Shown: one piece after another, positions 47,927 to 64,000 of the stretch
How the letters are laid out: each line of letters begins with the position of its first letter
How positions within the stretch are numbered: the first letter of the stretch is position 1
NCBI GenBank assembly: GCA_001916035.1
Contig: MNRQ01000020.1
Span: 69,819-133,818, forward strand
DNA length: 64,000 nucleotides
Origin: Clostridium sp. 27_14
Lineage (GTDB): Bacteria > Bacillota > Clostridia > TANB77 > CAG-508
Direction of reading: 5' to 3'
Notes under the pieces: model-generated
What the model saw: only the letters and a program-made list of their open reading frames with translations
What the model was told of the DNA's origin: nothing
The model's database searches: none
Made by a program: the position numbers and the translations under genes

Positions 47927-48040
47927 TTATTTCTCCTTTCCTTAGACAGCTTGAAATACGATATAAAATTATAGTTTCTACATTTCAAGTAGTGTTTATA
48001 ATATACCATATCTCAAACTGGAAATTCAACACAAAAACTA

Positions 48041-48304
48041 TTACTTTTGGAAGATTTCAAAAAATCTAGTTAATATAGTGTGTTCCGAATCTTTATTAAA
48101 ATAGGTATTTACCTTATAAACAGTACCTTTAATTTCTTTTTCAAAGTTCAAATTTTGTTCTGGATAAAAATTTTTTAAATATTCTGCACGTTCTTCATCG
48201 TTCATTTTATAGAGTTTATTACAAAATTCAGTCTTTAAATTCTCTAAAAATTCGTATTCTTCATTAGTCAGTTCAATTCTATATATTTTTTCACTATCTT
48301 GCAT
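48041..48304 (-). CDS. hypothetical 87-aa protein overlapping the relaxase stop
   Basis: 11-nt overlap with the 3' end of the relaxase gene, suggesting translational coupling. Confidence 0.5.
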   Translation of the reverse strand: MQDSEKIYRIELTNEEYEFLENLKTEFCNKLYKMNDEERAEYLKNFYPEQNLNFEKEIKGTVYKVNTYFNKDSEHTILTRFFEIFQK

Positions 48305-49583
48305 TTCTGTCAGCCCTCCTTTTCTTGTATTCAGGAGAGTTTTTTAGTTTTTGCTTTTCAAGTCTTTCTTTTTCTCTAGCTTCTTCAAGAGCTTTTCTTT
48401 CAGCTTGTATTTTTTCTTGCTCAATTCTTTGTTTTTCTAACTCATCTTGTTTCTCTTTAGCAAATAGTCCTTTAAATAAGTCAAAAACTTTTTGTGGAGC
48501 AAGTTTTATAGCATGGAAGTAATCTTTCGCTTTTTCTACAATATCATCATATAGAGATTTCCACTTATCTACTGCATTTCTTAAATTATCAATTCTACTA
48601 TTAAGTTCATATATTTCTTTATCTGCAACAATTCCTTTTTTAGCATATTCAGTTAAATTCTCATAATCTTCTTGTTCTAATTCAATTTTTTTAGAAAATC
48701 TCTTTTGTTTTCCTAAATTGGAAATGTTCTCAATTTGCTTATCATATTTCATATAGGAATTATAAGCAGATTCTTTTTCTTCAACTTTATTTGTAATGTT
48801 TTCTAATCTTTCAGTATCTTTCTTAATTTTAAATTGTAAATCATCTAAATGTTCTTGATTACTACCTTTTACACCACGAATAAAGTCTTTATAACCACAA
48901 TCACTCATATATTGGAAAAATCGGTCTTGTAATAAGCTATATGATTTTATTAAAACTGCATTTCCTTTTTTATCATATACAGGTTTTCCTTGATTATCTA
49001 ATACTTGCTCTGATTTCCATTTATTACTATGACTTACTTGATTGATTACTTCTTTTGTAGTTCCAATTAGTGCTTTGTCTTTACATTTCTTTGTCCATTT
49101 TACTTCTTTTCTTACAACAGGGAGTGCTACAACATGTAAGTGATAATGATATATAGTCTTTCCATATTTTTCTGTTAAAGCAGTATTTATTTCATCTGCA
49201 TGCATAACTGCTGATATAATGTTATTAGCTCCCATTTCTTGTTCAGCGAAGTGAAAAGCTTTTTCATAAAATTCTTTTGCAAATTCATAACCACCATGTT
49301 TCTCAAAATAGTCAGAGTTAATATCAAATATAAGTTCATCAAAAAGTTTAGCATTTTCTCTTAAACCTCTTAATGATACTTGTCCTTTATCAAGCAACTC
49401 TTTTAATTTTTCATTATAGGTAGTTTCACATCTTTTGTAGTGTATATTATTTTGTGTTTGCTCTATATCAACATTCATATTAGAATATGATTTATTTTTT
49501 CTTTCGTTGTGTCTTTCAGCTTTAGTTATACTTGCTTTAGTATAAGTTTCTACTCTAGCTACTGAATAGTTTGTTTTGTTCAT
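48294..49583 (-). CDS. MobV/Pre-family relaxase (plasmid recombination enzyme), intact
   Basis: AERHNER (HxxR) and MHADE...YHYHLHVV metal-binding motif, with a coiled C-terminal half. Confidence 0.85.
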   Translation of the reverse strand: MNKTNYSVARVETYTKASITKAERHNERKNKSYSNMNVDIEQTQNNIHYKRCETTYNEKLKELLDKGQVSLRGLRENAKLFDELIFDINSDYFEKHGGYEFAKEFYEKAFHFAEQEMGANNIISAVMHADEINTALTEKYGKTIYHYHLHVVALPVVRKEVKWTKKCKDKALIGTTKEVINQVSHSNKWKSEQVLDNQGKPVYDKKGNAVLIKSYSLLQDRFFQYMSDCGYKDFIRGVKGSNQEHLDDLQFKIKKDTERLENITNKVEEKESAYNSYMKYDKQIENISNLGKQKRFSKKIELEQEDYENLTEYAKKGIVADKEIYELNSRIDNLRNAVDKWKSLYDDIVEKAKDYFHAIKLAPQKVFDLFKGLFAKEKQDELEKQRIEQEKIQAERKALEEAREKERLEKQKLKNSPEYKKRRADRNAR

Positions 49584-49800
49584 TTAAATATCCTTTCTTG
49601 CAGGTAGCAAAGAGGCGACCAAAGGGAGCTGTTACATAACTTTCTTGCGAAAGTATGTAACCCACTATGACACTTTCAAAACTTCGTTTTGCAAAGATGT
49701 CGTGGGCTCCTTGCGGAGGGCTCATAAATTATCTAATCTAGAGATAGATAATTTATGTTTGGCTTCGCCAAAGCAAAAGAATATATTTAATATCATTTAT
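49584..49800 (-). promoter_or_regulatory. probable oriT and promoter region of the intact MobV gene
   Basis: GC-richer spacer with three inverted repeats: gttacataactttc/gaaagtatgtaac, ataaattatct/agataatttat, gcaaaagaatatat/atatattcttttgc. Confidence 0.45.
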
Positions 49801-50416
49801 ATATTCTTTTGCTCATCTTAACAATTTATTTACATACCAAAAATAAATTGTTAAGCTCTTTTTGTTCTGTATAAATGGAGAGGGTAGAAATTTATATACA
49901 AAAAAAGACCATAAGCGATATACCAATACTCTATTTACCCACGGCGAATACAATATTAATAAGCTCAAACAAAATTTGAGTTTTAAATATGTACTCATTT
50001 TTTTAGTGTGTATGTAAATAGAATATTGAACTTTGCACTCATGGCTTTCTTAATTACTTATAAATACTGGACAAGTTTACTATTATTATTTTAAAATTTT
50101 CACACTTTCTAATAACCAGCTCGCAATCCCTTATGCGACTCGTTTTCGCCTGGCATCTGAGGAATTATAAAATTCCCAAGAGATTGTCAATATTCTATAT
50201 TCTTTTATTGAATACACATAATATATATCATGATTTTAGCTAAAAATCAATAAATTCTGTAAATTTTTGTAATTTTAGCTACAACTTTGCAATAATATCG
50301 AGAATTTTGTAAAACTTGACTTCTTATGGGAAACCTGCTATATTATACATAATACTTCAGTATTGTAATAAGCAACACACCAATTCAATATGTCGATTGA
50401 CAAGGAGGATTTCAAA

Positions 50417-50863
50417 ATGAAAATTAAGACAGAAAATTATGTGTGTTCCATTTGTGGAAAGCGGAATGTAAAACTTTGGCGTCCTTATATGGACACAACT
50501 CCATTAATTTGTGCAGAATGTGCAGAAAAACGGCAAACACCATATGAGTACGAGGAAACGATTTGGCAAAAAGAAGATAACGGTTGGTATACTGGGAAAT
50601 TTACTGGCAAAAAACTTCCCTTACCTAAATGGGAAGTCGATGAGAAAGGTAAAGTTCCCTCATATCAAGGACCTGGACCTGATGGCGAACCTAGATCTAT
50701 GACTGACCAACTTATTGTTGATTTGTCAGATGTTTCAACTTCATATACATCTGGAAGTACTTCTATGGTACCAGCTTGCCCTGATGAAGACGGAGAATTT
50801 TGGGGATATACTTCCGTTCCTGAAGAAAACTGCAAATGGTGGGAAGAATTGCCGACAAGATAA
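50417..50863 (+). CDS. hypothetical higher-GC zinc-ribbon protein
   Basis: CSICG...CAEC pair and an aaggagg RBS before the ATG at 50417. Confidence 0.55.
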   Translation: MKIKTENYVCSICGKRNVKLWRPYMDTTPLICAECAEKRQTPYEYEETIWQKEDNGWYTGKFTGKKLPLPKWEVDEKGKVPSYQGPGPDGEPRSMTDQLIVDLSDVSTSYTSGSTSMVPACPDEDGEFWGYTSVPEENCKWWEELPTR

Positions 50864-50934
50864 TGTTGGCAACAGTAAAAAACGAACGTCGGATCTGAAA
50901 AGATTCGGCGTTTGTTTTTCTATCATATTGATTA

Positions 50935-51297
50935 CTAGCAGTAGATTAATTCTTTAAATATGATTTCGTCAACTATATGCTTATAATTATTCATAAGACC
51001 AGTCCATTTTAAAGGGTCGGTATTTTTCAAATTTTCATCAATAGGATTTTTTTCTAGCATTTGTGCCATAAGCATTTCAAATCTTTCTTTAGCTTGTTTG
51101 TCAGTTTCTACAATATGTTTTCTTAAAGTTTTGTTCATAAACATTATTATATATTCTGCTTTCTTGTGATTCTTTAAATATTTTAATCTTAAATGCCCAT
51201 ATTTTCCAATAATATAATTTTTCTCATAATCTTCTTTCTCTAAATATAAGTCAGGAATGAAAAAATCTCCCTCTTTGTGATAAGTTATCTCTACCAT
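50935..51297 (-). CDS. tnpV: TnpV-like protein
   Basis: GKYGHLRLKYLKNHK...ERFEMLM...IIFKELIYC. It is paralogous to 60551-60946. Confidence 0.7.
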   Translation of the reverse strand: MVEITYHKEGDFFIPDLYLEKEDYEKNYIIGKYGHLRLKYLKNHKKAEYIIMFMNKTLRKHIVETDKQAKERFEMLMAQMLEKNPIDENLKNTDPLKWTGLMNNYKHIVDEIIFKELIYC

Positions 51298-51472
51298 AAC
51301 TAAAACCTCCTAAAATTTAATTTCACTACTTTTAGAACTATAATTTTATATCTGCTAAAGCTGTCTATAAATACTAATTTTTATAAAGTGTACTTAACTT
51401 AAGTCTACTGGGTTAGGACTTATGGCAAAGCCAAAGCCCTGTGCTACGAAGAAATTTCAAGGAGGTGCTTTT

Positions 51473-51830
51473 ATGGAGCAAGAATTAGCATATTCTTTTC
51501 ACTTAGGTAGCGACAAAAACAAAAGTAAATTAGCAAAGAAAGTTGCAAAGGAAAATTTACCTGGTACTACTTCTCTATCAAATAATGCAATTCAAAATGC
51601 AAAAGATTTGTCAGACGTAAATAAACACAATTTAAGAGATTATGATAATCAAAGAGAATTGATATGACAAAGATAATAACTATAAAATAGTAAGTGATGA
51701 TCTATACAAAAATGGTATATTTACTGATGATGAAAATGAAATTGCAAATAATATTGCTAGAAAAATAAAACCGAAAGAAAATATAGAACAAGCAAAAAAT
51801 AAAAAGAAAAATAATTTTGAATTAAAGTAA
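51473..51830 (+). pseudogene. MobV relaxase remnant with an internal deletion
   Basis: The N-terminal 65 aa (MEQELAYSFHLGSDKN...NLRDYDNQRELI) are joined out of frame to a short C-terminal tail. The catalytic HxDE..PHxH region is absent. Confidence 0.7.
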
Positions 51831-51844
51831 AGGAGTAAAATATT

Positions 51845-52102
51845 ATGGAAGAAAATAAAGTTGAAAATGTAATAAATATAATCAAAAATATGGATATAAA
51901 AGATAAATTAAGACTTGGAATATGTCTATCTACTAGTAGTTGGACTAATATTCTATATGATAAAACAAAAATGTATGAGAAATTTAATACTATACTAAAA
52001 GAAATTGATGAAGAATATAGAACTACTCTAATAAATTTTGCAAAGTATAAACTTGTAATGTTTACAATGTCTAAAAATTATGGAAATGGAACAAACAGAT
52101 AG
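51845..52102 (+). CDS. hypothetical 85-aa protein
   Basis: aaggag RBS and a clean ORF. Confidence 0.45.
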   Translation: MEENKVENVINIIKNMDIKDKLRLGICLSTSSWTNILYDKTKMYEKFNTILKEIDEEYRTTLINFAKYKLVMFTMSKNYGNGTNR

Positions 52103-52272
52103 AAATAAAATTGCTTTATATTTAGTAAATAATGTAAATTAGAAAAATCTGTTTTTTGACATTTTTATATAAATGTGTTATAATTATAAGTGATGTAACA
52201 TATTGTAACTCCGTTGCATCAGTAGCTATAGACAGATTTTATTAATGGTACTTACCCAAGGAGGAAAAAATT

Positions 52273-52509
52273 ATGTTGGATATCAAAACCGCAACAATCG
52301 TTCGCAAGGCAATAAATGAGCACTTTTCTTCACCCAATATGGTAAGTTTGGAAGCAGTTTGCAGAATGCAGCCTGTTGTTCAGAATACCAATGGCATTGG
52401 CTATACTATCCTTGCTCTTCAGTCTGGAGACCTTACCATTCTGGTATGGGTACAGTTCAACGAGAAGCTTGGTGTTATGGTGAAAAGTGTCAAAGCTCAG
52501 GCGTGGTAA
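52273..52509 (+). CDS. hypothetical higher-GC 78-aa protein
   Basis: TTGACA-17-TATAAT promoter starting at about 52155, aaggagg RBS and a terminator hairpin after the stop. Confidence 0.5.
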   Translation: MLDIKTATIVRKAINEHFSSPNMVSLEAVCRMQPVVQNTNGIGYTILALQSGDLTILVWVQFNEKLGVMVKSVKAQAW

Positions 52510-52695
52510 ATCAAAACAAAAAAGAAATTATTCTTTCTCTCTCAGCAATGAGGGAGTTTTTTATATATTTTTGTTAAAATAAATTTTTTCATTTGTATTG
52601 CAATTTATTAAAAATATAATATACTTTAATAAATTGATTGATATTTGTATCAATCGTTAAAGGCGTGAAAAAAGTTGTAGATATCTACGTTGTCC

Positions 52696-52790
52696 GCACC
52701 AATAACATATCGTCATACAAAACAAAAAGGATTAAATCGACTGTAAACAGTCGATTTTTTTCGTTCTTAAGCAATATAATTTTTCGAAAT
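52696..52790 (+). repeat. right (internal) copy of the att-like direct repeat
   Basis: gattaaatcgactgtaaaCAgtcgatttttttcgt (52730-52764), preceded by GCACCAA that mirrors the tRNA 3' end. Confidence 0.7.
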
Positions 52791-53179
52791 AGTAATATTG
52801 TTATATTTTATGCAATTTGCAATTTTATGTAAAATAGCGTATCATAATTATATATGCTTTATTGCACAATATTATCTTAGGAGGAATAACTAATAGAAAA
52901 AACATTACGGTTACTGCAACAAACATGTTTAAATTAGTAAGCAAATCCTTTACAAAGTGCTTTTTTAAAGAAAACAAAGATACTTCTAACTATAGCATTA
53001 TGAACAATATACTAAAAAAATACTCATAAATATAGTGCCCCAAAATTATTAGACAAAAATATTTAATAATTTGGAAACACTTCATAAATAACCTTTTAGA
53101 ATAACGTAAAACTATTACCTATTTAAGAAATACATAGCAAAATTTAAGTAAGAAGCAAACAAACACCATAAATATATAA

Positions 53180-54094
53180 TTACAATTTATCAATAAATTT
53201 CTTTTTAATTTCATAAGAAGAATGTACATAAATCCCTAAAGTCACACTAACATTAGAATGACCCAACACTTCACTTAAAGACTTTACATCCATACCAACC
53301 CTAACACATCTTGTTGCAAATGTATGTCTTAAACAATGAAACTTTTTATATTGAATATTACAATTATTCAACATTTTTTTATATGTATATCTATAACTTA
53401 ATGGTTCTATAACCTTGTCTTTTCCAGATATAACAAAATCATTTTTAGAATATTTTTTAGAAAATTCTCTCAATTTCTTATACAAAATTTTAGCCATTGG
53501 TATTTCTCTAACTGATTTCTTCGTTTTAGGAGAAGTTATTATAATCTTACTATTATTTTTACTTAAATATATTCTCTGAACAGTATGAATTACCCTTATT
53601 TTTTTTGCATCAAAATCTATATCAGCCCACCTCAATGCACAAATCTCACCTATTCTTAAACCAGAATACATACTAATCAATACCCCTATTTCTTTTAAAT
53701 CATTTGAATTCAATATATAATTTTCTATCTTCTTTCTTTCTTTTTCATTAAATATCTCAACTTCACTTCCACCAGATGTTGGTAATGATATCAAATCTAA
53801 TTTAAAATCTATATCATATTTTCTTTCACAATATTTTAAAATTGATTTTAATACTGTTATTATATCTTTTATTGTTTTATCTGACAAAGTTTCTTGTAAA
53901 TCTTCTATATATCTATTTATATCAATATTATTAAACTTTTTTAAGGTATACTCTCCAAAATCCTTTTTTAAATATTTTACAATTTTAAATTTATAATTTG
54001 AATATGTCGATTCTTTGATTCTCATTCTCTTATATGATAGCCATTCATCACATAAAACATTAAATTTTTTTTCTTTTTCATTTAAACATTTCAT
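53180..54094 (-). CDS. int: tyrosine site-specific integrase
   Basis: GLRIGE (Arg I), HCLRHTFAT (HxxR) and LGHSNVSVTLGIYVH (catalytic Tyr). Confidence 0.85.
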   Translation of the reverse strand: MKCLNEKEKKFNVLCDEWLSYKRMRIKESTYSNYKFKIVKYLKKDFGEYTLKKFNNIDINRYIEDLQETLSDKTIKDIITVLKSILKYCERKYDIDFKLDLISLPTSGGSEVEIFNEKERKKIENYILNSNDLKEIGVLISMYSGLRIGEICALRWADIDFDAKKIRVIHTVQRIYLSKNNSKIIITSPKTKKSVREIPMAKILYKKLREFSKKYSKNDFVISGKDKVIEPLSYRYTYKKMLNNCNIQYKKFHCLRHTFATRCVRVGMDVKSLSEVLGHSNVSVTLGIYVHSSYEIKKKFIDKL

Positions 54095-54494
54095 TTCTTC
54101 AACTTTCCTTTCTAAAACGCCATATATTGTGTTATAAAAATTTTAAAATTTTTTCATAATATAAAGCCAAAATATTTTAATTTTTATTATAAGAGTTCCT
54201 TTATTGATAAATATACCATATCTTTAGCAATTGGAACAAAGTTATAGTTAGTGTTTTTGCTCGTTTTATGTAAAATAAAGCTTATTTTTTCCATTTTTTT
54301 ATTACTGTGAATAACTTTTAAAATTCCTGTAATACTAATAGTACGAATTATTTTTTGAACTTTTTGTCGTTTTTTGTCGAATTTAGGTGGGTTTATTAGG
54401 ACTTTTACCATTTGGCAATTTTCATATTCCTAGTTTGTTCTATATTTACTTATAAATTGTTATACTTATTTTAGTTAATATGGAGGTGTACATT

Positions 54495-54833
54495 ATGAAA
54501 TCTAATGTAAAAAATTCAATTGATTCTGCTATCGGTAAAGTATTCAAATCCTATAGAAAAAAATATCACTTGACTCAAACTCAAGTTGCTGATAAACTTG
54601 GTATATCAGAAAAATACATTTCGAGATTAGAAAATGGAAATAGTGGAGTTAAACTTGAAACTTTAATAAATTACATGAACACTTTAGGCATAGCACCTGA
54701 TGTTTTATTTAAAGACTTAATGAGAAATAATGATGTAGTTTTCCAAGTAAACTTATCTCAAAAAATCAGTGAATTACCTAAAGAAAGACAAAGATTTATT
54801 AATAAAATCGTAGACGAATTAAAACGCCTATAA
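54495..54833 (+). CDS. XRE family HTH regulator
   Basis: LTQTQVADKLGISEKYISRLENG helix-turn-helix. GGAGGTG RBS precedes the ATG at 54495. Confidence 0.8.
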   Translation: MKSNVKNSIDSAIGKVFKSYRKKYHLTQTQVADKLGISEKYISRLENGNSGVKLETLINYMNTLGIAPDVLFKDLMRNNDVVFQVNLSQKISELPKERQRFINKIVDELKRL

Positions 54834-54905
54834 AGTCAAAAAAAGTTCCACAAATATTAGACAATTCTCTAATATTTGTAGAACTTTTTTTATATCTCAT
54901 TACAT

Positions 54906-56339
54906 TTATTCTTTCCAAAAAGCCTCATAAGTTTTATAAGCTGAATAAATATCATATTTACTAGTTACCTCATAAGGAGCATGCATTGAAAGAACTGGAA
55001 CACCACAATCAATTACATCTGTACCTTTATTAGCCAAAATATATGCAATTGTACCTCCTCCTCCAACATCAACTTTTCCTAATTCAGCAACTTGATATTT
55101 TATTTCATTTTTTTCTAGTACATTACGTACCCAAGCCACATATTCAGCATTAGCATCAGAAGCACCTGATTTTCCTCTCACACCTGTATACTTATTTAAT
55201 GTTATTCCTCTACCTAAATATCCTGCATTTGTTGTATCTGAAACATACGCATAAATTGGATCAAAACCCGCATCAACATCAGAAGATAACATTTTAGAAA
55301 AACAAAATACCTTATCTAATAAGTTAGGCTTATTTATCCCCAATTTATTTAATATTTCTGATATAAAGAAATCAAACATATGTGATTCCATACCTGTATT
55401 TCCCATACTTCCTATTTCTTCTTTATCTGACAAAATACATACTGCCGTATTTTTTACATTTTGTAAATTCATCATTGCTGCTAAAGATGTATATGCACAT
55501 ACTTTATCATCTTGACCATAACCAGCAACCATACTTTCATCAAATCCTAATGAACGTGCTTTAAAAGCTGGAACTAATTCCAATTCCGCACTTAATAAAT
55601 CTGATTCTGTAATTCCATATTTTTGATTCAACAAATTCAATATATTTAATTTAACTCTTTCACTAACTCCACATTGTTTTTTATGTTCTTCACCATCTTT
55701 ATTACAACATGTAAATGGTATACTTCCTATTAAAAGTCTTAAATCTTCTCCTTCTACACCATTTTTTAATTTTTTCTCCATTTGTTCTTGTGCTAAATGT
55801 GGCAATAAATCTGTTATTGTAAATATTGGATCTGTTTCCTTTTCACCTATCTCGATTTCTATTTTTTCCCCATTAGTTTTTACTATAACTCCATGTATAC
55901 TAAGTGGTATTGTTGTCCATTGATATTTTTTTATTCCACCATAATAATGTGTTTTAAAATAAGCCAAACCACCATCTTCACATAATGGATTTGGTTTTAA
56001 ATCTAACCTTGGTGAATCAACATGTGAACCTATGATATGCATTCCATTTTCTTCTATACCTTTTTCACCAATTATAGCCAAGTACATGCTTTTTCCTCTG
56101 TTTATAAAATACACTTTATCACCTGGCACTAAATTTTGTTTATTTATTATATCTGTAAAGCCATTTTCATCTGCTAATTTTTTAGCATTTTTTATAAACT
56201 CTCTTTCTATTTTTGACCTATTTAAAAATTCCATATAGCCATTTGAAATCTTATAAATTTCCTCTTTTTGACCTTCTTTTAAGCATTTCCATCCTTCTTC
56301 TTTTTTGTTAAAAAGTTTTTCCTTTAGTTCTTCTCCCAT
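54906..56339 (-). CDS. M18 family aminopeptidase
   Basis: IIGSHVDSPRLDLKPNP, GGIKKYQW and C-terminal metal ligands. About 477 aa. Confidence 0.8.
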   Translation of the reverse strand: MGEELKEKLFNKKEEGWKCLKEGQKEEIYKISNGYMEFLNRSKIEREFIKNAKKLADENGFTDIINKQNLVPGDKVYFINRGKSMYLAIIGEKGIEENGMHIIGSHVDSPRLDLKPNPLCEDGGLAYFKTHYYGGIKKYQWTTIPLSIHGVIVKTNGEKIEIEIGEKETDPIFTITDLLPHLAQEQMEKKLKNGVEGEDLRLLIGSIPFTCCNKDGEEHKKQCGVSERVKLNILNLLNQKYGITESDLLSAELELVPAFKARSLGFDESMVAGYGQDDKVCAYTSLAAMMNLQNVKNTAVCILSDKEEIGSMGNTGMESHMFDFFISEILNKLGINKPNLLDKVFCFSKMLSSDVDAGFDPIYAYVSDTTNAGYLGRGITLNKYTGVRGKSGASDANAEYVAWVRNVLEKNEIKYQVAELGKVDVGGGGTIAYILANKGTDVIDCGVPVLSMHAPYEVTSKYDIYSAYKTYEAFWKE

Positions 56340-56646
56340 TTTTATCACTATCCTTTCTTAATTCGTATTATGGTCACAGTATATCACTTTTTGTTTTTTT
56401 TGTCTATATCGTATATAATGCTAATATCTTATGCTCATACTATAAAAAATATGTATAATATGACAAGATCTTTTGAAAACATAATTTATACTAAAAAAAT
56501 TTTATGTAATTTTTCTTTTCAAAATAGTTACATGTATTCAGCAAACAAACAAGAATTAAAAATATAAAAGATGAAACAAATGCTATTGACTCATTAATTT
56601 TTTGTTTTTTATTGACTTGACTACATTTTTTTGCTACAATGCTAGT

Positions 56647-56730
56647 AATATTCATATATTTATATGTTTATTTTATTTATTTTTTGTTTATGAACTAGAT
56701 TTCTTCAAAAAGCAATCTAGTTCTTATTTA
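56647..56730 (+). ncRNA. candidate ~85-nt small RNA convergent with the deaminase gene
   Basis: TTGACT (56612-56617), 17 nt, TGcTACAAT (56632-56640). Hairpin gaactagatt/aatctagttc at 56692-56723 followed by a T-rich tail. No RBS-preceded ORF. Confidence 0.3.
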
Positions 56731-56796
56731 TATATCTACAAAAAAACAAATTCTATGATACTTTAATATATCCTTTTAATATAATCTTTTATTTTC

Positions 56797-59298
56797 TTAA
56801 CAAATTTCTGGATTTTCCTCAATTATTCTATCAACAACGTCATTTTCTAATGAAAATGGAACAACATAACCTTCCAAATTATTCATTTTTTCACTTAAAA
56901 CTTCATTTTTCCTATTTACATATACTTTAGATTTTCCTTTGCCATTTTTGGCCTCTTGAACCAAATTAGAAACCGGTGAATTTCCATCAAAAGCAAGCAC
57001 TATTGACTTTCTTCTTTCAAAAATTTCATAATTAAAACTTTTATAAATTCCTAATTCTTCACTTTCTGTTGATATTCTTATACCTGTTATATTATCATTT
57101 TCCAATCTACTTTTTATCTTCTCATCTATCTTTTTAGGAATAATAGCATAAATTTCAAAACTCTTTCCTTGCTCAATTTCGCTTTCTATAATTGCTTTCT
57201 CATATCCTTCCATTTTATGTCCTATAACAAAAAATACTTTTTTAGGATCTAACTTTCTTACTAAATCATCTATTATATTTTTTCCCTGTTCAGTAACAAA
57301 AGTTACTCTTCCTTTTTTATTAAAACTTCCTCCTGCAACTATAACTGGAACTTTATCTAATGGTAATTCTTTTATCTTGTATTTCAAAACTTCTTCTGAA
57401 TCTACTGTATTTGTGATTCTAAGATCACCAACTTCATCTTTTATCTTTTCTAATTCTTCATTTTCTAGTTCCAATATAGCCTGTCTTAAAGTTCTGCCAT
57501 TCAAAAATTTTTCAAATTTTCTAGACTTTTCTTCAAAAAATCTTTCATTTTGCCCAATCACTTCATCTTCAACAGTTCTCATTTGTTCAAATTCTAGATC
57601 TGTAACATCTAAAAGATTTCTTAAAGCTAGTTGCTCATCAAAAGTATCTGTACCATAAAATCCATTACCATCTGTTCCTTGTACACATTTTACTCCTTCA
57701 CTCAAAAATCTTTTTATTGGATGATTTTCTAACTTACTTAAATTATTTAATCTTATATTAGATGTCAACTGAAATTCTACTATTGTATTAGTCTTCTTCA
57801 TTTTCTCTATTAATTCTTTTCCCTCTTTTGTATTAGGATCTTTTGAATATAAACCATGACCAATTCTAATTCTAGGCATTTTTTGTCCATCTCTTAATGA
57901 TTCCTCTACACATTTTATTGATTTCTCGACATTGTCTTTTAAGCTATCATTTTCACCTGCGTGTATTCTAACTGTAAAGCCTTCATCATAATATGCAATA
58001 TCTTGTACTATTTGCATTATTGCAGGTTTTAAATCTTCTATATCATTTATTTCTTCTCCTATAAAGTCACTTCCAACGACATAAGGATCTTTAGCTATTG
58101 CTTTTAAAACACATACATTTTCTCTTAAATATTTATCACTTGTAAATTGATCTTTTATTATTGTTAATACTACTCTTCTTATACCTGCTAAAAATCTAAT
58201 TTTTACACCCGTTTCTTTTTCCATTTCAGGAAAAATTTGATGTACTTCTTCCAGCAATTTTATTGCCGGTTCACCTATTTTTACCAAATCTGTATCAGCA
58301 ATTTCTACATATTCTATTCTTTGCCTTTGATATTCTCTAGCTATCCATAATAATTTATCCTGTCTTAATACATTATTTCTATAAGGACTTTCTGGCTTGT
58401 TATCTTGTAACATCTTAATTAGCATTTTTCTTATATCTTTTTCTGGTATTCTTTTTACTATTTCTTCATTTAATTCTATCTTATTTTCTGATGATATACC
58501 TTTTGCAAATACATATCTATATATGTAGCATTTCTCCAAGTTTGTAAATACTGCTTGCCCATCTTTTAATATAGATAAACTTACTCTTATTTTTTCTATA
58601 TTTCTTTTTGCATTTTCTAGATTATTTAATATAAAATCTGCAAAATTTATAAAAGTATTATCATCTATTCTCCTTATTAAATATTTTCCTGTTAAATGTG
58701 AATTTGCAAATTCTTTCTCTACTTCTCTTCTTTGCTCCATTATTTTTTCTTCTTGTTCTTTTGACATTACTAAATTCAACTTTTTTATATAATATAAAGG
58801 GTATCTTATTTGATGCTTTATTCCTAATGCTATTAAACAATCTGGTGTTAGTATTGCATTCATGTGTGTATGTAAATCTGTTCTAAATTTACTTTTCTTT
58901 AATATATATGTTTTTACAAAAGTTTTTTCTATTGGTAATTTGTATTTTTTTGTTTGTGACATTAATGTTTTACTAATGGCTGGTATTTGAGCTTTTATTT
59001 CTATTCTATCGTTATATATATTAGCAACTTTTATTCCTCCAAGTCTAAAAGTATAAACTTCTTCATTTTCGCCATTTATCATAGCTTGCATTCTACCTTT
59101 TATTATTTTCATGTCATTATCATTTTTTTCTGTTTCTAAATGACATATTTGTGCTAAATTTGTTATAAGTGTTCCTTTTTTATGATTTGGAGTTTCTAGT
59201 ATATACTCAATTTCGTCTTTTGATATTCTATATAATTTTACTATTACATCTTTTTCTTTGTCTAAATAAAATTCATCAAATACTTTTAATTTTTCCAT
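56797..59298 (-). CDS. 833-aa three-part protein: unknown N-terminal domain, adenosine/AMP-deaminase-fold metallohydrolase, and a LOG/SLOG-like Rossmann domain
   Basis: DLHTHMNA (HxH), RIHAGE, IGHG and GTDGNG in ADA order. The C-terminus has VIVAGGS, VIGHKMEGYEKAI, YAIIPKK and LAFDGNSPVSNLVQEA in LOG-like order. Confidence 0.6.
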   Translation of the reverse strand: MEKLKVFDEFYLDKEKDVIVKLYRISKDEIEYILETPNHKKGTLITNLAQICHLETEKNDNDMKIIKGRMQAMINGENEEVYTFRLGGIKVANIYNDRIEIKAQIPAISKTLMSQTKKYKLPIEKTFVKTYILKKSKFRTDLHTHMNAILTPDCLIALGIKHQIRYPLYYIKKLNLVMSKEQEEKIMEQRREVEKEFANSHLTGKYLIRRIDDNTFINFADFILNNLENAKRNIEKIRVSLSILKDGQAVFTNLEKCYIYRYVFAKGISSENKIELNEEIVKRIPEKDIRKMLIKMLQDNKPESPYRNNVLRQDKLLWIAREYQRQRIEYVEIADTDLVKIGEPAIKLLEEVHQIFPEMEKETGVKIRFLAGIRRVVLTIIKDQFTSDKYLRENVCVLKAIAKDPYVVGSDFIGEEINDIEDLKPAIMQIVQDIAYYDEGFTVRIHAGENDSLKDNVEKSIKCVEESLRDGQKMPRIRIGHGLYSKDPNTKEGKELIEKMKKTNTIVEFQLTSNIRLNNLSKLENHPIKRFLSEGVKCVQGTDGNGFYGTDTFDEQLALRNLLDVTDLEFEQMRTVEDEVIGQNERFFEEKSRKFEKFLNGRTLRQAILELENEELEKIKDEVGDLRITNTVDSEEVLKYKIKELPLDKVPVIVAGGSFNKKGRVTFVTEQGKNIIDDLVRKLDPKKVFFVIGHKMEGYEKAIIESEIEQGKSFEIYAIIPKKIDEKIKSRLENDNITGIRISTESEELGIYKSFNYEIFERRKSIVLAFDGNSPVSNLVQEAKNGKGKSKVYVNRKNEVLSEKMNNLEGYVVPFSLENDVVDRIIEENPEIC

Positions 59299-59357
59299 TT
59301 TTTATCACTTTTCCCTTCATTACCTTCGAAAAAAGCACAGCTTTTGCTGTGTTTTTT

Positions 59358-59434
59358 TGGTGCGCCTGGAGGGATTCGAACCCCCGATCTTCAAGTTCGT
59401 AGCCTGATATTCTATCCAACTAAACTACAGGCGC
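59358..59434 (-). tRNA. tRNA-Arg(ACG)
   Basis: gcgcctgtagtttagttggatagaat, anticodon loop ctACGaa, T-arm gggggttcgaatccctc, encoded CCA, and a terminator hairpin at 59331-59357. Confidence 0.85.
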
Positions 59435-59644
59435 ATATTTGTTTTCTATTTATTAAAAATTAAACCTCACATTTCTTTGTTTATTTTTTCCTTAATACTT
59501 GTACATTTTATATTATACTTTGATTTTTCTTTTTATTCAAGTCTTTTTTTAATTTTTTTTATTTTTTTTTCAAAATCTATTGTCAAATTGTTTTTTTTAT
59601 GGTATATTATATAAGCATTAAGGTTATTTTAATTCGAGGTGTAG

Positions 59645-59720
59645 CGCAGTTGGTAGCGCGCGTGGTTTGGGACCATGAGGTCGCAGGTTCGATCCCTGTC
59701 ACCTCGACCATATTAGACCG
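59645..59720 (+). tRNA. tRNA-Pro(TGG)
   Basis: cgaggtgtagcgcagttggtagcgc, anticodon loop ttTGGga, T-arm gcaggttcgatccctgt, encoded CCA. Confidence 0.9.
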
Positions 59721-59859
59721 TTTTTCAAGAAAATTCAATAGAATTTGAAAACAGTCAAAAATATTTAAAAGTGCTATTTTCTAAGAATTTTAGAGAATAG
59801 CACAATTTTTTTACATTCTAAAAAATTCTCAAAAATTCCAATATTTTGTATAGAAAAAT

Positions 59860-59910
59860 GTTCCGCAATTTTTAAAATCTTTAAAAAAATTGTTCCGCAA
59901 ATTTCCGCAA
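59860..59910 (+). repeat. three TTCCGCAA direct repeats (iteron or operator-like) upstream of repA
   Basis: Copies at 59861-59868, 59893-59900 and 59903-59910. Confidence 0.6.
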
Positions 59911-59977
59911 AGCAAAATTCATTGATATTTAGGCACTTTCAGTGTTGTTCAAAAAAACTGAAAGGAGAACTATTGCT

Positions 59978-60532
59978 ATGGATTTTATACCTTATAAAGT
60001 GAATGAATGTCTTGAAAATACTTTTTATCAAGTTCCAAAAGAACTATTTATAAATCCATATTATGAGAAACTAAATTCAGATAGTAAATTATTATATGCA
60101 CTTTTACTAGATAGACTATCAGTTTCAATGAAAAATGAATGGATTGATGAAGATGGAAATATATTTTTAATATTTTCAAGAAAAGAGGCTGGGGAGAAAC
60201 TAAATTTATCAGACAAAACAGTCACAAAAGCATTTAGAGAGCTAAACAATGTAAAATTGATGTATGAAAAGAGGTTAGGTTTTAGAAAAAAGAATATTAT
60301 CTATGTTGGAAAAATAAATCATATATCAACTGAAAAAATTATGAGCCGTAAAAATTACGATTCAAGAAACGGAAAATTTACGAATCAAGAGTCGGAGATT
60401 TTACGATGTAGTAATAATAAATATAATAAAACTAATTATAGCAATACGCCCCAGAGAAAAAATTCATATTCAAATTATGAACAAAGAGTTTATGAGCCAG
60501 AACAATTAGATAAATTATATTGTAATGTATAA
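59978..60532 (+). CDS. repA: replication initiator protein A (RepA_N family)
   Basis: FYQVPKELFINPYY...SKLLYALLLDR...IFLIFSRKEAGEKLNLSDKTVTKAFRELN. aaaggag RBS precedes the ATG at 59978. Confidence 0.8.
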   Translation: MDFIPYKVNECLENTFYQVPKELFINPYYEKLNSDSKLLYALLLDRLSVSMKNEWIDEDGNIFLIFSRKEAGEKLNLSDKTVTKAFRELNNVKLMYEKRLGFRKKNIIYVGKINHISTEKIMSRKNYDSRNGKFTNQESEILRCSNNKYNKTNYSNTPQRKNSYSNYEQRVYEPEQLDKLYCNV

Positions 60533-60550
60533 AAAAGGAGATTTAAAGAT

Positions 60551-60946
60551 ATGGAAAATATAAAATTAAAAGATAAATTTATTGATGAAAAAACAGGAAT
60601 TGAATATATAAGAAAAGGTGATTTCTACTTTCCAAATTTAGTCGATTCGGCTAGTGTAAATAAAAGTGAACTTGGTAAATATGGAAAATTAAGATTGAAA
60701 TATTTATTAGAGCATAATAAAGTAGAATATACAATTTTATGGCTTGATAATAAATTAAGAAGTCATTTATTAGAAATAGATAAAACAGCCAATGAAAGAT
60801 TTCATTTGTTAATGAAACAATTTGCAGAGCAAGAAAATATAACTAAAGAATTAAAAACAACTAATCAGATGGAATGGGTTAGATGCATGAATAATATTAA
60901 AAATCGTGTTGAAGAAATTATATTTAAAGAATTAATATATGTATAG
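60551..60946 (+). CDS. tnpV: TnpV-like protein
   Basis: GKYGKLRLKYLLEHNK...ERFHLLM...IIFKELIYV. Confidence 0.7.
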   Translation: MENIKLKDKFIDEKTGIEYIRKGDFYFPNLVDSASVNKSELGKYGKLRLKYLLEHNKVEYTILWLDNKLRSHLLEIDKTANERFHLLMKQFAEQENITKELKTTNQMEWVRCMNNIKNRVEEIIFKELIYV

Positions 60947-60963
60947 GGAAAGAGGTAAAAGTT

Positions 60964-61287
60964 ATGGAAGAAATTAGATTATATGATATGGATTCAATTG
61001 AATTTAGAGAGTTAATAGATGCTGCAAGAGTTGAACTAAAAAATAATAATTCCGAATATAAAGAATTAAAAAATAAAGTTAGTGAAATTATGGAGATATA
61101 TCCAAATTTGCAATTGCTTTTTGAAGATGATAAAGTTATGAATTTAAACGAAGAAGAATGCAAAATGTTGCAAAAGTTAGTATCTCTTTATTTACAGATG
61201 AGTGATTATGAAGATAGAAAAATTTTCTTTTTAGGAGCAAGAGAAAACTACTTTTATTTTAAAAATTTAGGAATTATTAAAGATTAA
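60964..61287 (+). CDS. hypothetical protein (107 aa)
   Basis: ORF with gaggtaaaag RBS. Confidence 0.45.
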   Translation: MEEIRLYDMDSIEFRELIDAARVELKNNNSEYKELKNKVSEIMEIYPNLQLLFEDDKVMNLNEEECKMLQKLVSLYLQMSDYEDRKIFFLGARENYFYFKNLGIIKD

Positions 61288-61365
61288 AATAACGTTTATA
61301 AGAGAAGAAATCTAAAACTTTCTTCTATTTTTTGACGTAAAAAATTCTGAAAGGAGCAAACAAAA

Positions 61366-61857
61366 ATGAGAAATAAAGAATTAAAAGTAACACAAGAGTT
61401 TACAAATTTATTTAATGATGAATTAGTAATTTATAAAAATATATTAATAAAAGGAAGAAGTAAAATCACATTTTATAATTATATTATAGTAACAAGAAAA
61501 GGTATTTTTGCAATTACGACTAAAACAATTTTAGGTCGAATGGTAACAGATAAATATAAAGTAAAATGGAAATCTTATATAGGATTTATTCCATTTATTT
61601 TTACAAATCCACCACTAGATGTGAGTTATAAAAGTTGTGATTTAGATTTTGTTTCAGATTGTGAAATGGATAAAATTATTCCAATTTCAATAATAAAAAA
61701 TAAAGGAAAAAATCATTTTTATATTGATATGGATTACACACAAAAAGAAAAATTTTATTATGAATTATCTCATCAACAAGATGTATTTTCTGATAAAGAA
61801 GTCTCGCAAACTTGTGAACTAATAGAGAAAAAAGCACTTGTTTTTAGTAGAGGGTAG
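61366..61857 (+). CDS. hypothetical protein, weakly NERD-like
   Basis: YIIVTRKGIFAITTKT...KWKSY...FTNPP resembles the NERD core, but the acidic residue is not evident. Confidence 0.35.
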   Translation: MRNKELKVTQEFTNLFNDELVIYKNILIKGRSKITFYNYIIVTRKGIFAITTKTILGRMVTDKYKVKWKSYIGFIPFIFTNPPLDVSYKSCDLDFVSDCEMDKIIPISIIKNKGKNHFYIDMDYTQKEKFYYELSHQQDVFSDKEVSQTCELIEKKALVFSRG

Positions 61858-62051
61858 CTACTTGAAAACTTTATGCTATTTTGAAAGCAAGCATCGCATT
61901 TATACTCCCGTATAAATACAGTTTGTCAGTTTTGCATCAAAACTGAACTATGGGGAATTTCTTCCCCAATCCCCTTAAAAATATAAGCAATTTTCTGGCA
62001 GTCTTTAAAAAAATAGACTGTCAATTTTTTTGAAAAAGGAGAATGAAAATT

Positions 62052-62375
62052 ATGAGAAAAAGAAATATAAAAAAACAAATATGGTTAGATACAAAAGAAG
62101 ATGAATTATTAAAAAGAAAATCAAAAGAAGCAGGTTTAAGTGAAGCTGAATTTATTAGAAGTTTAATTAAAGGTTATAGAATAAAAGCACAACCAACTGA
62201 AAAAATAAAATCTTTTCAAAGAGATTTGTATGGCATAGCCAATAATATAAATCAAATTGCTAAAGTTGCAAATTCTAGATACAGTGTTTCGCACGATGAT
62301 TACAAATATATTTCAGATACTTTAGCTAATTTTATTTTAAGGTTTGAAAGGAAGATTTGTTCTAGACAAAAATAA
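62052..62375 (+). CDS. mobC: MobC relaxosome accessory protein
   Basis: SEAEFIRSLIKGY...LYGIANNINQIAKVAN. Confidence 0.8.
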   Translation: MRKRNIKKQIWLDTKEDELLKRKSKEAGLSEAEFIRSLIKGYRIKAQPTEKIKSFQRDLYGIANNINQIAKVANSRYSVSHDDYKYISDTLANFILRFERKICSRQK

Positions 62376-62387
62376 GGGAGGATTTAA

Positions 62388-63713
62388 GTGGCTATTACAA
62401 AATATAAAGTTATTAAGAAAAATTTAGATGCAGTAATAAATTATGCAATGAATGGAGAAAAAACTGAAAATGGTATTTTAGTATCTGGTATAAATTGTTT
62501 ACCACAAACAGCCTATTCTCAAATGATGCTAACTAAAAAAGCATTTCATAAAGAAGATGGCAGATTAGGTTATCATATAATACAATCTTTTAATGGTAAT
62601 GAAATTTCCCCAGAAAAATGTAACAAAATCGGAATAGAACTTGCTGAAGAACTATGGGGCGATAAATATCAAGTTATAGTTTGCACACATACTAATAAGC
62701 AAAATATTCACAATCACATAGTTCTAAACTCTGTTTCATTTATTGATGGAAGTAAATATCATAATTCAAATGTTGAAATTGCTTTACTTCGAGAAACAAA
62801 TGATGATATTTGTAGAAAATATGGACTATCTATAATTAAAAGCACAAAAGCTACTACAGTAAGTGATATATCAAAGAGTAGAATTGCAAATTATAACCGT
62901 AATTCTGGAAAAATGGAACTTATAAAAGCTGATATTGATGAAACAATTAAAGATGCTCAAAAATATGAAGAGTTTGTAGATATATTAGCCTTTAAAGGTT
63001 ATTATATTAAAAAGTCTAGTAATGTTATATCTGTTGCTACTCCGTACTATAATAGAAATATAAGACTTGCAAAAGCATTTGGAGAAGATTATACTTTTGA
63101 AAATATTAAAACTATAATATATCAAGATGCTTTATATGATAGGTATTTAAAAAGAACTAACAATGAAAAAGTATATAAAATAAGAATTTATGATGGTATT
63201 AAAATTGACCAAGAAAAATTAAAAACTTCATCTTTTTATAGATTATATGTTCATTATTTATATTTGCTTGGAAAATTGCCACCTAAAATTCATTATGAAG
63301 AAAAAACAAAAGAATATTATCAAGAAATAGATAAATTTAATAAATTAGCTGATGAAATGAATTTAATATGCACTTATAATCTAAACTCAAACGAAGATGT
63401 TCAAAATTTAAGAATGCAATATATTGAAGAAATTACACCTTTAAAGTCAGAACGAGAAAAAATAAGGCAATTATATAGGAAAACTACCAATGAAACTGAT
63501 AGATCTTTTCTTGAATATAAATTAAATAATCTTACTAAAGATATAGATAAAATAAATTCAAAAATACAAATTTGCAAACGAATTATTACTAAAGCTGAAA
63601 AAGGCGAAAAAGAAGCTATTTTAATTAAAAATAGAGTAGCAGAAAATCAACAAAATAATGAGTTGGAAAACTCAAAAAGTAAAGATAGAAGAATAGATAG
63701 AGCTACTTTTTAG
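62388..63713 (+). CDS. MobA/VirD2-family relaxase
   Basis: GYHIIQSF and HTNKQNIHNHIVLNSV histidine triad. GTG start after gggagga. Confidence 0.85.
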   Translation: MAITKYKVIKKNLDAVINYAMNGEKTENGILVSGINCLPQTAYSQMMLTKKAFHKEDGRLGYHIIQSFNGNEISPEKCNKIGIELAEELWGDKYQVIVCTHTNKQNIHNHIVLNSVSFIDGSKYHNSNVEIALLRETNDDICRKYGLSIIKSTKATTVSDISKSRIANYNRNSGKMELIKADIDETIKDAQKYEEFVDILAFKGYYIKKSSNVISVATPYYNRNIRLAKAFGEDYTFENIKTIIYQDALYDRYLKRTNNEKVYKIRIYDGIKIDQEKLKTSSFYRLYVHYLYLLGKLPPKIHYEEKTKEYYQEIDKFNKLADEMNLICTYNLNSNEDVQNLRMQYIEEITPLKSEREKIRQLYRKTTNETDRSFLEYKLNNLTKDIDKINSKIQICKRIITKAEKGEKEAILIKNRVAENQQNNELENSKSKDRRIDRATF

Positions 63714-63741
63714 TAGTTCTATCTAATTATAAAAATTAATC

Positions 63742-64000
63742 TTAAAATCTTTGTGCCTTATACCATTTAGAAAATTCTCTCATTGCATCTACAGATTCAT
63801 ATTTTATTCTATTTGACCTTTCTTCATCTGTCATTTGAGCTAATGTTTTATCATATCCATAAGGCTTAAATATATACCATAAATCAGACCATTTTTTATC
63901 TGTATCATTACCTAATATTTCTTTAGATAATGTTCCTTCATGTTTTCCCATAAATTGATGTAATTCGTTTCCATCATAATAAGATAAGCATTCTGTAAAT
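63742..64000 (-). CDS. hypothetical protein, 5' end outside the window
   Basis: The frame stays open upstream of the listed ATG (FTECLSYYDGNELHQF-MGKHEG...) to the window edge. Confidence 0.45.
   Translation of the reverse strand, partial: FTECLSYYDGNELHQFMGKHEGTLSKEILGNDTDKKWSDLWYIFKPYGYDKTLAQMTDEERSNRIKYESVDAMREFSKWYKAQRF

Follow-up and report, generated by a model that had tools for sequence, protein, structure and literature searches.

A conserved clostridial protein that joins an adenosine-deaminase-fold barrel to a C-terminal SLOG domain: a candidate nucleotide-tuned adenine-nucleotide deaminase

A 64,000-nucleotide stretch of contig MNRQ01000020.1 from the gut bacterium Clostridium sp. 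27_14 (assembly GCA_001916035.1, positions 69,819 to 133,818; hereafter the window) contains an 833-codon open reading frame (ORF) that runs from an ATG to a stop codon on the minus strand (56797..59298). The encoded protein combines a family-specific N-terminal domain, an adenosine deaminase (ADA)-fold barrel and a C-terminal SLOG-superfamily domain. It is read here as a chromosomal, vertically inherited adenine-nucleotide deaminase with a nucleotide-tuned SLOG domain that serves purine interconversion or salvage, a reading that may well be correct and may equally well prove wrong; its substrate, its SLOG ligand and the direction of its regulation we infer. Both folds are known and so are sensor-gated ADA enzymes (Cad1), and what appears to be new is that an ADA barrel is combined with an LSDAT-like SLOG domain and a novel N-terminal domain in a conserved chromosomal gene. 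Neither an ADA plus SLOG nor an LSDAT plus deaminase architecture was found in the searchable literature, which yielded only reviews that name the two separately.

Results

Domain Organization of the Protein

A preliminary description of the window had proposed a stand-alone protein with the metal and catalytic motifs of the ADA superfamily in canonical order, preceded by about 135 residues that could not be placed and followed by a LOG/SLOG-like C-terminus. The ORF list, the translation and a motif check confirmed the 833-residue frame and all quoted motifs in the stated order, and each of the three parts was recovered in the analyses below. The AlphaFold2 (AF2) model of the full protein, built on an alignment of 42 sequences with identities of 23–83%, has a mean pLDDT of 84.2 and a pTM of 0.83. 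The features of the gene at the domain level are the following.

56797..59298, minus strand: complete coding sequence, 833 amino acids plus stop codon (56797-56799); ORF list, translation, dN/dS, same-species copies
58894..59298, minus strand: N-terminal beta-rich domain, residues 1-135, family-specific; AF2, no Pfam or PDB match
57601..58893, minus strand: adenosine-deaminase-fold (beta/alpha)8 barrel, residues 136-566; Pfam PF00962, PDB sequence matches, Foldseek
58339..58797, minus strand: helical insertion of about 150 residues (168-320) after barrel strand 1; late Pfam start, AF2
57409..57600, minus strand: long helical linker from the barrel to the SLOG domain, residues 567-630; AF2 helices
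56800..57408, minus strand: C-terminal SLOG-superfamily Rossmannoid domain, residues 631-833; AF2, Foldseek, Pfam LSDAT, profile search

The Barrel Belongs to the Adenosine/AMP Deaminase Superfamily

The Pfam A_deaminase family (PF00962) matches residues 320-573 (E=2.4e-17, 63.5 bits against a gathering cut-off of 27 bits), and a PDB sequence search with the protein recovered Plasmodium and bacterial ADA. The top Foldseek matches of the model in the PDB are human ADAL1 (8qch), human, mouse and bacterial ADA (3iar, 1add, 6n9m), Helix AMP deaminase (9nte) and Cad1 (8z3k, 9c6f), and the Arabidopsis N6-mAMP deaminase was matched as well. Barrel matches have TM(target) scores of 0.55–0.76, with E-values of 3e-10 to 1e-7 against ADA, ADAL and AMPD. 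The NCBIfam Add equivalog TIGR01430 scores 49.4 bits against a cut-off of 216.55, and all PRK09358 models lie far under their cut-offs. The protein is thus a member of the adenosine/AMP deaminase superfamily that stands outside the canonical Add equivalogs.

The Pfam match begins only at residue 320 (profile position 78) because barrel strand 1 is followed by the helical insertion, which is absent from canonical ADA. In the AF2 model the insertion consists of helices at residues 180-196, 204-213, 227-240, 251-265, 287-298 and 311-325, and its residues Q248, F251, E255 and R261 are invariant in the 42 sequences. The four active-site motifs are located as follows.

58855..58878, minus strand: DLHTHMNA, residues 141-148, HxH metal ligands H143 and H145; alignments A1 and A2
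57952..57969, minus strand: RIHAGE, residues 444-449, metal ligand H446 and catalytic E449; invariance, aligned to the HAGE of Plasmodium ADA
57853..57864, minus strand: IGHG, residues 479-482, catalytic His corresponding to ADA H238; invariance, aligned to the RIGHG of ADA
57661..57678, minus strand: GTDGNG, residues 541-546, metal ligand D543; invariance, canonical ADA has SDDP here

Residues T140, D141, H143 and H145 are invariant in both family alignments (A1 and A2), and R444, H446, A447, G448, E449, R478, G480, H481 and G482 are invariant across the family alignments. The metal ligands and catalytic residues (H143, H145, H446, E449, H481, D543) are unchanged in all 42 sequences, down to about 25% identity, and the enzyme should therefore be active, with the barrel acting as a catalytically competent deaminase.

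The substrate contacts of classical ADA are altered. Asp19 (mouse numbering) corresponds to N147, with Ala in its place in distant relatives, and Asp296, the latter Asp of the canonical "DD", gives way to the invariant G544 within a motif in which D543, G546 and Y548 are also invariant. These changes suggest a substrate other than plain adenosine. Because ADAL, AMPD, Cad1 and RdrB likewise lack the ADA-type ribose contact and use phosphorylated substrates, we infer a 5'-phosphorylated adenine compound (AMP, ADP, ATP or ADP-ribose) in place of free adenosine. AMPD is a large enzyme that is allosterically regulated by nucleotides. The window protein shares its superfamily with AMP deaminase and ADAL (MAPDA, the N6-methyl-AMP deaminase), whose substrates are 5'-phosphorylated, and Asp19 of ADA is lacking here as in ADAL, but it has no sequence kinship with these enzymes outside the barrel and differs from them in its invariant "DG" in place of "DD" and in having a SLOG domain as its putative regulatory domain.

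The C-Terminal Domain Is a SLOG Domain with Tentative Affinity to the LSDAT/TRPM Clade

Two helices (residues 567-599 and 604-618, pLDDT ~90) link the barrel to residues 631-833, which were also modeled separately (pLDDT 84.4). The PDB matches of this C-terminal domain belong almost exclusively to the SLOG superfamily, and the top 45 Foldseek matches comprise LOG (5its, 5zbl, 5zbk), Moco carrier protein (2iz5, 2iz7), the N-termini of TRPM4 (9b8w), TRPM8 and TRPM2 (6pkx), and DprA (5mll), with E-values of 5e-5 to 3e-3 and TMq scores of 0.5–0.64 (0.63 for TRPM4 9b8w). Residues 631-833 are a SLOG-superfamily domain.

The position within the superfamily is less firm. The C-terminal 200 residues of the window protein alone matched no family in Pfam or NCBIfam scans. 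Among 20 family C-terminal domains, 13 are matched by Pfam LSDAT_euk (best E 7e-6) and 12 by LSDAT_prok, the "SLOG in TRPM" family (5e-5), but all of these matches (PF18171/PF18139) come from the distant subfamily and lie below the gathering score. A C-terminal-domain profile searched against PDB sequences gave marginal matches to the N-termini of TRPM2, TRPM7 and TRPM8 (E 0.07–2), and the alignment revealed a TGGTNxGVxK signature common to distant relatives and TRPM ("TGGTNTGVMK" of a TRPM2-like channel). The domain therefore appears closest to the LSDAT/TRPM clade, a tentative membership. It resembles that clade (TRPM MHR1/2 and prokaryotic LSDAT) in its Rossmannoid SLOG fold, in the signature found in distant members of the family and in its TRPM structural matches, and differs in the sub-gathering Pfam scores, in a second motif that has diverged to IGHKMEGYEK in the window protein, and in having an enzyme, not a channel or a two-transmembrane effector, as its fusion partner. 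The SLOG/LSDAT group was reportedly defined by Burroughs et al. 2015, NAR 43:10633.

The C-terminal elements pointed out in the preliminary description lie at residues 652-658 (VIVAGGS), 691-703 (VIGHKMEGYEKAI), 717-723 (YAIIPKK) and 768-783 (LAFDGNSPVSNLVQEA). Gly-rich loops follow SLOG strands 1, 2 and 4, and three conserved ligand-loop motifs were defined.

57325..57354, minus strand: SLOG motif 1, KVPVIVAGGS, residues 649-658, first strand and Gly/Ser loop; 42-sequence invariance
57196..57222, minus strand: SLOG motif 2, GHKMEGYEK, residues 693-701, corresponding to TGGTNxGVEK of distant relatives and TRPM; invariance
56944..56994, minus strand: SLOG motif 3, AFDGNSPVSNLVQEAKN, residues 769-785, corresponding to AIGGGsvVsDmIQrAhN; invariance

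Invariant in the 42 sequences are K649, P651, G656 and S658 of motif 1 (K649-x-P-x4-G656-x-S658), G693, G698 and E700 of motif 2 (G693-x4-G698-x-E700), and G772 and N785 of motif 3, where A769, V776 and Q781 are nearly so.

The best structural matches of the domain are LOG enzymes, including the AMP complexes 5zbl and 5zbk, and the order of the Gly-rich motifs is the same. This raises the possibility of a bifunctional salvage enzyme in which the barrel would convert AMP to IMP and the SLOG domain, as a LOG-type phosphoribohydrolase, would release hypoxanthine and ribose 5-phosphate. The invariant Gly-rich loops with E700 at the nucleotide-binding edge fit such a step, and Nuc_deoxyri_tr2 domains of N-glycosidase type in distant relatives (see below) make base release a theme around the family. 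However, no LOG Pfam match was found in the C-terminal domain, and the catalytic Glu of the LOG motif PGGxGTxxE falls on N778 in the window protein and on D or N in relatives, a register that was set by eye from the motifs and not by superposition. The sequence affinity is to LSDAT/TRPM domains, which are ligand-binding and noncatalytic (PMC13143021), and a SLOG domain that was itself a glycosidase would leave the added DrHyd-type domain of relatives redundant. The bifunctional enzyme is accordingly regarded as improbable. The Asn at the position of the LOG Glu and the affinity to noncatalytic TRPM domains make a sensory or regulatory role likelier than a nucleosidase role. The statements on SLOG/LSDAT domains follow secondary citations in PMC13143021 and PMC9503650 and general background.

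The N-Terminal Domain

The model gives the N-terminal domain strands at residues 6-11, 19-26, 29-35, 64-74, 80-86 and 89-94, with pLDDT of about 70–89. It matched nothing in Pfam, NCBIfam or the PDB sequences, either as a single sequence or as a profile of 14 sequences (the profile gave chance-level PDB matches only), in line with the earlier statement that it could not be placed. The domain is poorly conserved, and only N47, Q115 and P122 stand out.

Distribution and Selection

More than 5600 homologs were found, and the top 120 are all about 830–845 amino acids long. A HMMER search of 1.84 billion representatives (clusters at 50% identity) returned 797 clusters at E<=1e-3, and many of their members are full-length (750–1000 amino acids) and carry the whole N-terminal domain, ADA and SLOG architecture at 27–37% identity; distant relatives with the same architecture show 25–35% identity. 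Relatives are named "hypothetical protein" or "adenosine deaminase" in their sources. Orthologs were found in 21 GTDB species genomes and at 80 metagenome loci, and at 90% identity they group into 45 clusters; the 21 genomes all belong to uncultured gut Clostridia, one of them named Candidatus Merdicola. The gene next to the deaminase gene encodes an M18 aminopeptidase, an identical copy of which is present in 322 blocks of a public assembly collection, so that the host represents a very abundant lineage of human-gut Clostridia. Across orthologs the identities of the deaminase and the M18 peptidase fall in step (82/91, 83/90, 76/84 and 66/78%), and dN/dS against six orthologs is 0.10–0.16, which indicates purifying selection. 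In one metagenome-assembled genome (locus L019, 5496-7993) the ortholog is split by a frameshift into ORFs of 180 and 692 amino acids, either a pseudogene or an assembly error.

A Fixed Gene between Variable Mobile Elements

The preliminary description had noted that a single core gene separates the deaminase gene from the mobile DNA to its left, which holds (the M18 aminopeptidase gene), and had called the position defense-island-like. Mobile-element genes for an integrase, Mob_Pre, RepA_N, TnpV, NikA/MobC and a relaxase do occur on both sides of the gene. Six tRNA genes were found in the window, of which tRNA-Arg(tct) at 40976-41052 and tRNA-Pro(tgg) at 59635-59710 each border a stretch rich in mobile genes. 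In four long contigs of the same species (L117-L120), which stand for more than 20 similar places, an identical 833-residue gene was called and the order deaminase, M18 peptidase, helix-turn-helix (HTH) gene and integrase is constant. The element beyond tRNA-Arg/tRNA-Pro is of three kinds: RepA_N with TnpV and NikA as in the window, Mob_Pre with a longer RepA_N, or HTH_36 with unknown genes. In the locus of a related species (L001), the integrase and HTH genes lie directly beside tRNA-Arg(tct) without the ~12-kb insert, and the deaminase gene is kept. Because the flanking elements vary between strains and the 833-residue gene is constant, the gene is not mobile cargo. The integration hot spots are real, vary between strains and target tRNA genes, and the deaminase gene is their fixed chromosomal neighbor, together with the M18 gene and the tRNA genes, so that the defense-island-like position was not borne out. 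The tRNA-Arg(acg)/tRNA-Pro pair adjoins the gene in many lineages, in opposite relative orientation, which points to old synteny.

The same description had suggested a single-gene anti-phage effector. In that case the SLOG domain would sense a phage-induced or signaling nucleotide and switch on deamination of ATP/dATP to ITP/dITP, arresting the infected cell in the manner of Cad1 or RdrB. RdrB of RADAR is a large ADA-superfamily protein (about 800–900 amino acids) that acts on ATP/dATP. The window protein is likewise a large member of that superfamily, but it has no RdrA neighbor, no RdrB profile match and different extra domains. The closer parallel is Cad1/CAAD of type III CRISPR systems, in which an ADA-fold barrel is also fused to a Rossmannoid nucleotide sensor (Foldseek matches 8z3k, 9c6f, 9c77) and which converts ATP to ITP upon binding of cyclic tetra- or hexa-adenylate (cA4/cA6) by that sensor (PMC11645235). 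In 32 of 42 family members the ADA part is matched by the PADLOC CARF_ADA profile (best E 3.5e-18). In the enzymatic effector ThsA of Thoeris (SIR2-SLOG), too, the ligand is sensed by a SLOG domain (PMC11204291, PMC11645235). To these parallels can be added the location between two integration sites of mobile genetic elements, the rare and patchy occurrence of the family across bacteria, and two distant loci in which a TPR-S/guanylate-cyclase protein follows an ADA-SLOG-NUDIX relative and an N6/N4 DNA methyltransferase gene precedes another relative.

Against an anti-phage effector stand the details of each comparison and the genomic context. The putative sensor is a C-terminal SLOG domain here, and the sensor of Cad1 is an N-terminal CARF domain; the CARF_ADA match of the window protein spans profile positions 338-559 only (the ADA part), and no CARF match was obtained in its N-terminal domain. 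In sequence, the barrel matches ordinary ADA (E=4e-14) better than it matches Cad1 (E=0.13), and the gene is stable, chromosomal and located in housekeeping neighborhoods outside any CRISPR context. Compared with ThsA, the SLOG domain belongs to another clade, an ADA barrel takes the place of SIR2, and the examined loci have no ThsB/TIR partner. As the preliminary description had noted, no RdrA-like ATPase is adjacent: the neighbors in the window are the tRNA-Arg gene and the M18 aminopeptidase gene, and no PADLOC defense protein adjoins the deaminase gene there. A PADLOC search of ten neighboring window proteins gave only generic HTH matches and a coiled-coil match to JetC. Across 111 loci no RdrA partner was seen next to the gene, and no cas genes were found among the recurrent neighbor families within four genes of it. 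A TIR-type (ThsB) partner was found neither in the window nor among the recurrent neighbor families inspected in related loci. Overall, no TIR, cyclase, CRISPR or RdrA partner was seen in the window or among the recurrent neighbors in the 111 loci, and no defense partner recurs around the family. Conservation with ancestral tRNA synteny and housekeeping neighbors in at least 45 lineages, constant length and the low dN/dS also speak against such an effector, which is considered a distinctly unlikely explanation. Two related candidates were tried and rejected: membership in RdrB (no PADLOC RdrB match at E<=0.01 in the query and 42 family members) and a viral origin or phage-borne copy (no relative in IMG/VR contigs and no Foldseek match in BFVD at E<=1e-3).

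The mobile DNA itself displays several further features. The composite island adjoining tRNA-Arg(tct) (41053-54833) carries two serine recombinases, one of them split into two ORFs (41669-42127 and 42186-43418) and the other at 46748-47926, as well as genes for Mob_Pre (48294-49583), TnpV (50935-51297), a tyrosine integrase (53180-54094) and an HTH protein (54480-54833). The element on the other side (59711-64000) encodes a RepA_N protein of 184–196 amino acids with TnpV, DUF6664, a NERD-like protein, NikA/MobC and a relaxase; the NERD-domain (nuclease-related) small protein on this mobilizable element (61366-61857) has no PADLOC match. Other strains carry Mob_Pre with a RepA_N protein of 306–309 amino acids, or HTH_36 with unknown genes, at the tRNA-Arg(acg)/tRNA-Pro site. 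A dispersed repeat of ~145 nucleotides occurs at 29785-30012 and 32136-32284 of the window and at 5357-5506 of locus L033. Around a DD-carboxypeptidase gene (30831-32069) lie three copies, two in tandem and one inverted, and an extra copy lies by the HTH gene (window ~54830) in one strain contig, which gives the repeat the look of a small MITE (miniature inverted-repeat transposable element) or REP (repetitive extragenic palindromic) element.

Gene Neighborhoods and Domain Fusions Point to Purine Nucleotides

The neighborhood sample comprises 111 loci, with 40 dereplicated lineages for which upstream sequence is available. The commonest neighbor is a CDA-fold protein of 153–171 amino acids whose best PDB match is the Bacillus subtilis guanine deaminase 1wkq (E=4e-40, full length). 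Assignment of this neighbor as TadA was rejected since it scores under the equivalog cut-off, and guanine deaminase is preferred. In 23 of the 111 loci (10 of the 40 lineages) the guanine deaminase gene is the next one upstream, on the same strand, and in 12 of the 40 it lies within four genes. Other recurrent neighbors are an M23 peptidase, an HtrA-like protease, the spoIIIA operon with RNase Y, and exonuclease III; rpe, pgi, pheT, ffh/ylxM and S16 were identified by eye from sequence. Distant relatives have tRNA synthetases, EF-Tu/EF-G, ribosomal proteins, TsaD and RelA/SpoT as neighbors. Of the two kinds of association that had been envisaged for the homologs, recurring defense genes were thus not found, and a purine link is present in part of the lineages, the other recurrent neighbors being housekeeping genes. 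Purine salvage, which had been named as the conservative alternative, fits better than defense, with guanine deaminase as the commonest neighbor, but the LOG-type nucleosidase step included in it is doubtful given N778 at a position that is not conserved in an alignment made by eye.

Domain fusions in distant relatives add to this association. Two of them (P0237 and P0269) carry a fused C-terminal NUDIX domain and retain the SLOG domain (hhalign probability 98–99%). The NUDIX part of P0269 matches uncharacterized MutT/nudix proteins (best 3i9x), the ADP-ribose (ADPR)-binding NrtR 3gz5/3gz8, and the human ADPR pyrophosphatase NUDT9 (1q33, E=6e-4). A third relative (P0158) has a fused C-terminal Nuc_deoxyri_tr2 domain, and the next gene downstream in its locus (L114), on the same strand, encodes a Nudt16-like NUDIX protein. 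NUDT16 clears IDP/dIDP, as cited in PMC11645235 (its reference 33). In a fourth (P0283, locus L028) a Nuc_deoxyri_tr2 gene is adjacent. Together, the NUDIX and Nuc_deoxyri_tr2 associations of the distant relatives point to stepwise processing of adenine/inosine nucleotides.

Processing of ADPR or another NAD-derived nucleotide would be one form of this, with the SLOG domain binding ADPR as TRPM2 MHR1/2 does (PMC13143021), the barrel deaminating an ADPR-type adenine and NUDIX partners splitting the product. The LSDAT-type SLOG signature, the combination of SLOG and NUDIX in P0237 and P0269 with NUDT9 among the matches, and the noncanonical G544, which suggests an unusual substrate, are all consistent with it. 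However, the NUDIX matches are weak and the best is to an uncharacterized protein, the other NUDIX neighbor is Nudt16-like and suggests IDP/ITP rather than ADPR, a NUDIX domain and the TGGTN signature are both missing from the window protein, and the 111 close loci show no linkage to genes of NAD metabolism. ADPR processing is therefore judged very unlikely.

Several other genes were observed around distant relatives. In locus L115 a 681-amino acid TPR-S plus guanylate-cyclase (class III nucleotide cyclase) protein (5771-7816) is encoded on the same strand as P0237, and the two may form a pair of signal generator and effector in that distant branch. In L114 (6082-10737) a divergent PGDYG-domain gene lies upstream of P0158 and a RyR-domain gene follows the Nudt16-like gene, and P0288 shows a weak C-terminal PGDYG match. 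A recurring gene set flanks distant relatives in L022 (10532-12367 and 5512-5958), L025 (5242-7091 and 10501-10959), L004 and L020; it consists of paralogs of ~150 amino acids (two per locus), a protein of ~165 amino acids starting MxGYxxHxAIG and a protein of 293–404 amino acids, none of which has a Pfam or NCBIfam match.

Expression Context

The window is very AT-rich (26.8% G+C). Directly upstream of the deaminase gene lies the following feature.

59336..59434, minus strand: tRNA-Arg(acg) at 59358-59434 with a terminator-like hairpin at 59351-59336; ARAGORN, Rfam

The tRNA-Arg(acg) gene is on the same strand as the deaminase gene, 60 nucleotides 5' of its start codon. The hairpin, with its T-run, lies between the two and ends 37 nucleotides before the start codon. 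No promoter-like site was seen between hairpin and start codon, and the nearest one on this strand (59540-59512) is upstream of tRNA-Arg(acg). The hairpin without an intervening promoter-like site suggests that the deaminase gene is expressed by read-through from the tRNA promoter, and transcription from 59540-59512 in this way is possible. The only Rfam elements found near the gene are tRNAs, both in the window (54000-60500 at E<=1) and in nine related loci (at the gathering threshold).

Discussion

The deaminase in the proposed function would hydrolytically remove the 6-amino group of an adenine-containing compound, probably a phosphorylated one, in its TIM barrel, giving the inosine form and ammonia. 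The SLOG domain, of TRPM/LSDAT type, is most likely a noncatalytic nucleotide-binding module, and ligand binding to it would tune the deaminase through the long helical linker, as the CARF domain does in Cad1 and comparable to the ATP/GTP sites of eukaryotic AMP deaminase. The N-terminal domain would be a beta-rich module specific to the family that might serve assembly. In AT-rich gut Clostridia the enzyme would channel adenine nucleotides toward IMP, hypoxanthine and xanthine and from there to GMP.

Several observations weigh against this proposal. The linkage to guanine deaminase is found in only a quarter of lineages, and no guanine deaminase gene was found in the window's own genome segment. 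Neither the window nor the nine related loci have a purine riboswitch or another Rfam element apart from tRNAs near the gene. The exchange of Asp296 for Gly together with that of Asp19 for Asn or Ala would imply a mode of substrate recognition unlike that of every characterized ADA, and the proposed substrate and ligand are guesses. The rare and patchy distribution across bacteria (797 clusters) also suits accessory or conflict functions, and among distant relatives the TPR-S/guanylate-cyclase-domain protein lies directly downstream of the ADA-SLOG-NUDIX protein P0237 and the N6/N4 DNA methyltransferase gene precedes P0296.

A broader and rather unlikely possibility is that the family represents an unrecognized class of ligand-gated purine-nucleotide deaminases, in which an LSDAT-type SLOG domain would sense ADPR or a related nucleotide and control an ADA barrel with an altered pocket (Asp to Gly), the module serving nucleotide homeostasis or immunity depending on the lineage. 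If so, the versions that combine ADA, SLOG and a NUDT9-like NUDIX domain would be a bacterial precedent for the pairing of LSDAT and NUDT9H in TRPM2. Some distant relatives share with TRPM2 the pairing of SLOG and a NUDT9-like NUDIX domain, and these SLOG-NUDIX variants could serve as a tractable bacterial model for nucleotide reading by LSDAT domains, with bearing on ligand sensing by TRPM2/TRPM4.

The case also cautions that adjacency to tRNA-targeting mobile elements does not place a gene in a defense island. Under the proposed function in purine interconversion or salvage, the enzyme may be a route for the conversion of adenine to guanine nucleotides or for the harvest of purine nitrogen in AT-rich Clostridia, whose genomes may be reduced. 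If the SLOG domain does gate the deaminase, sensor-controlled adenine-nucleotide deamination would have a second example, one independent of CRISPR, and Cad1 and RADAR would have a housekeeping counterpart that would help to explain the origin of those immune effectors.

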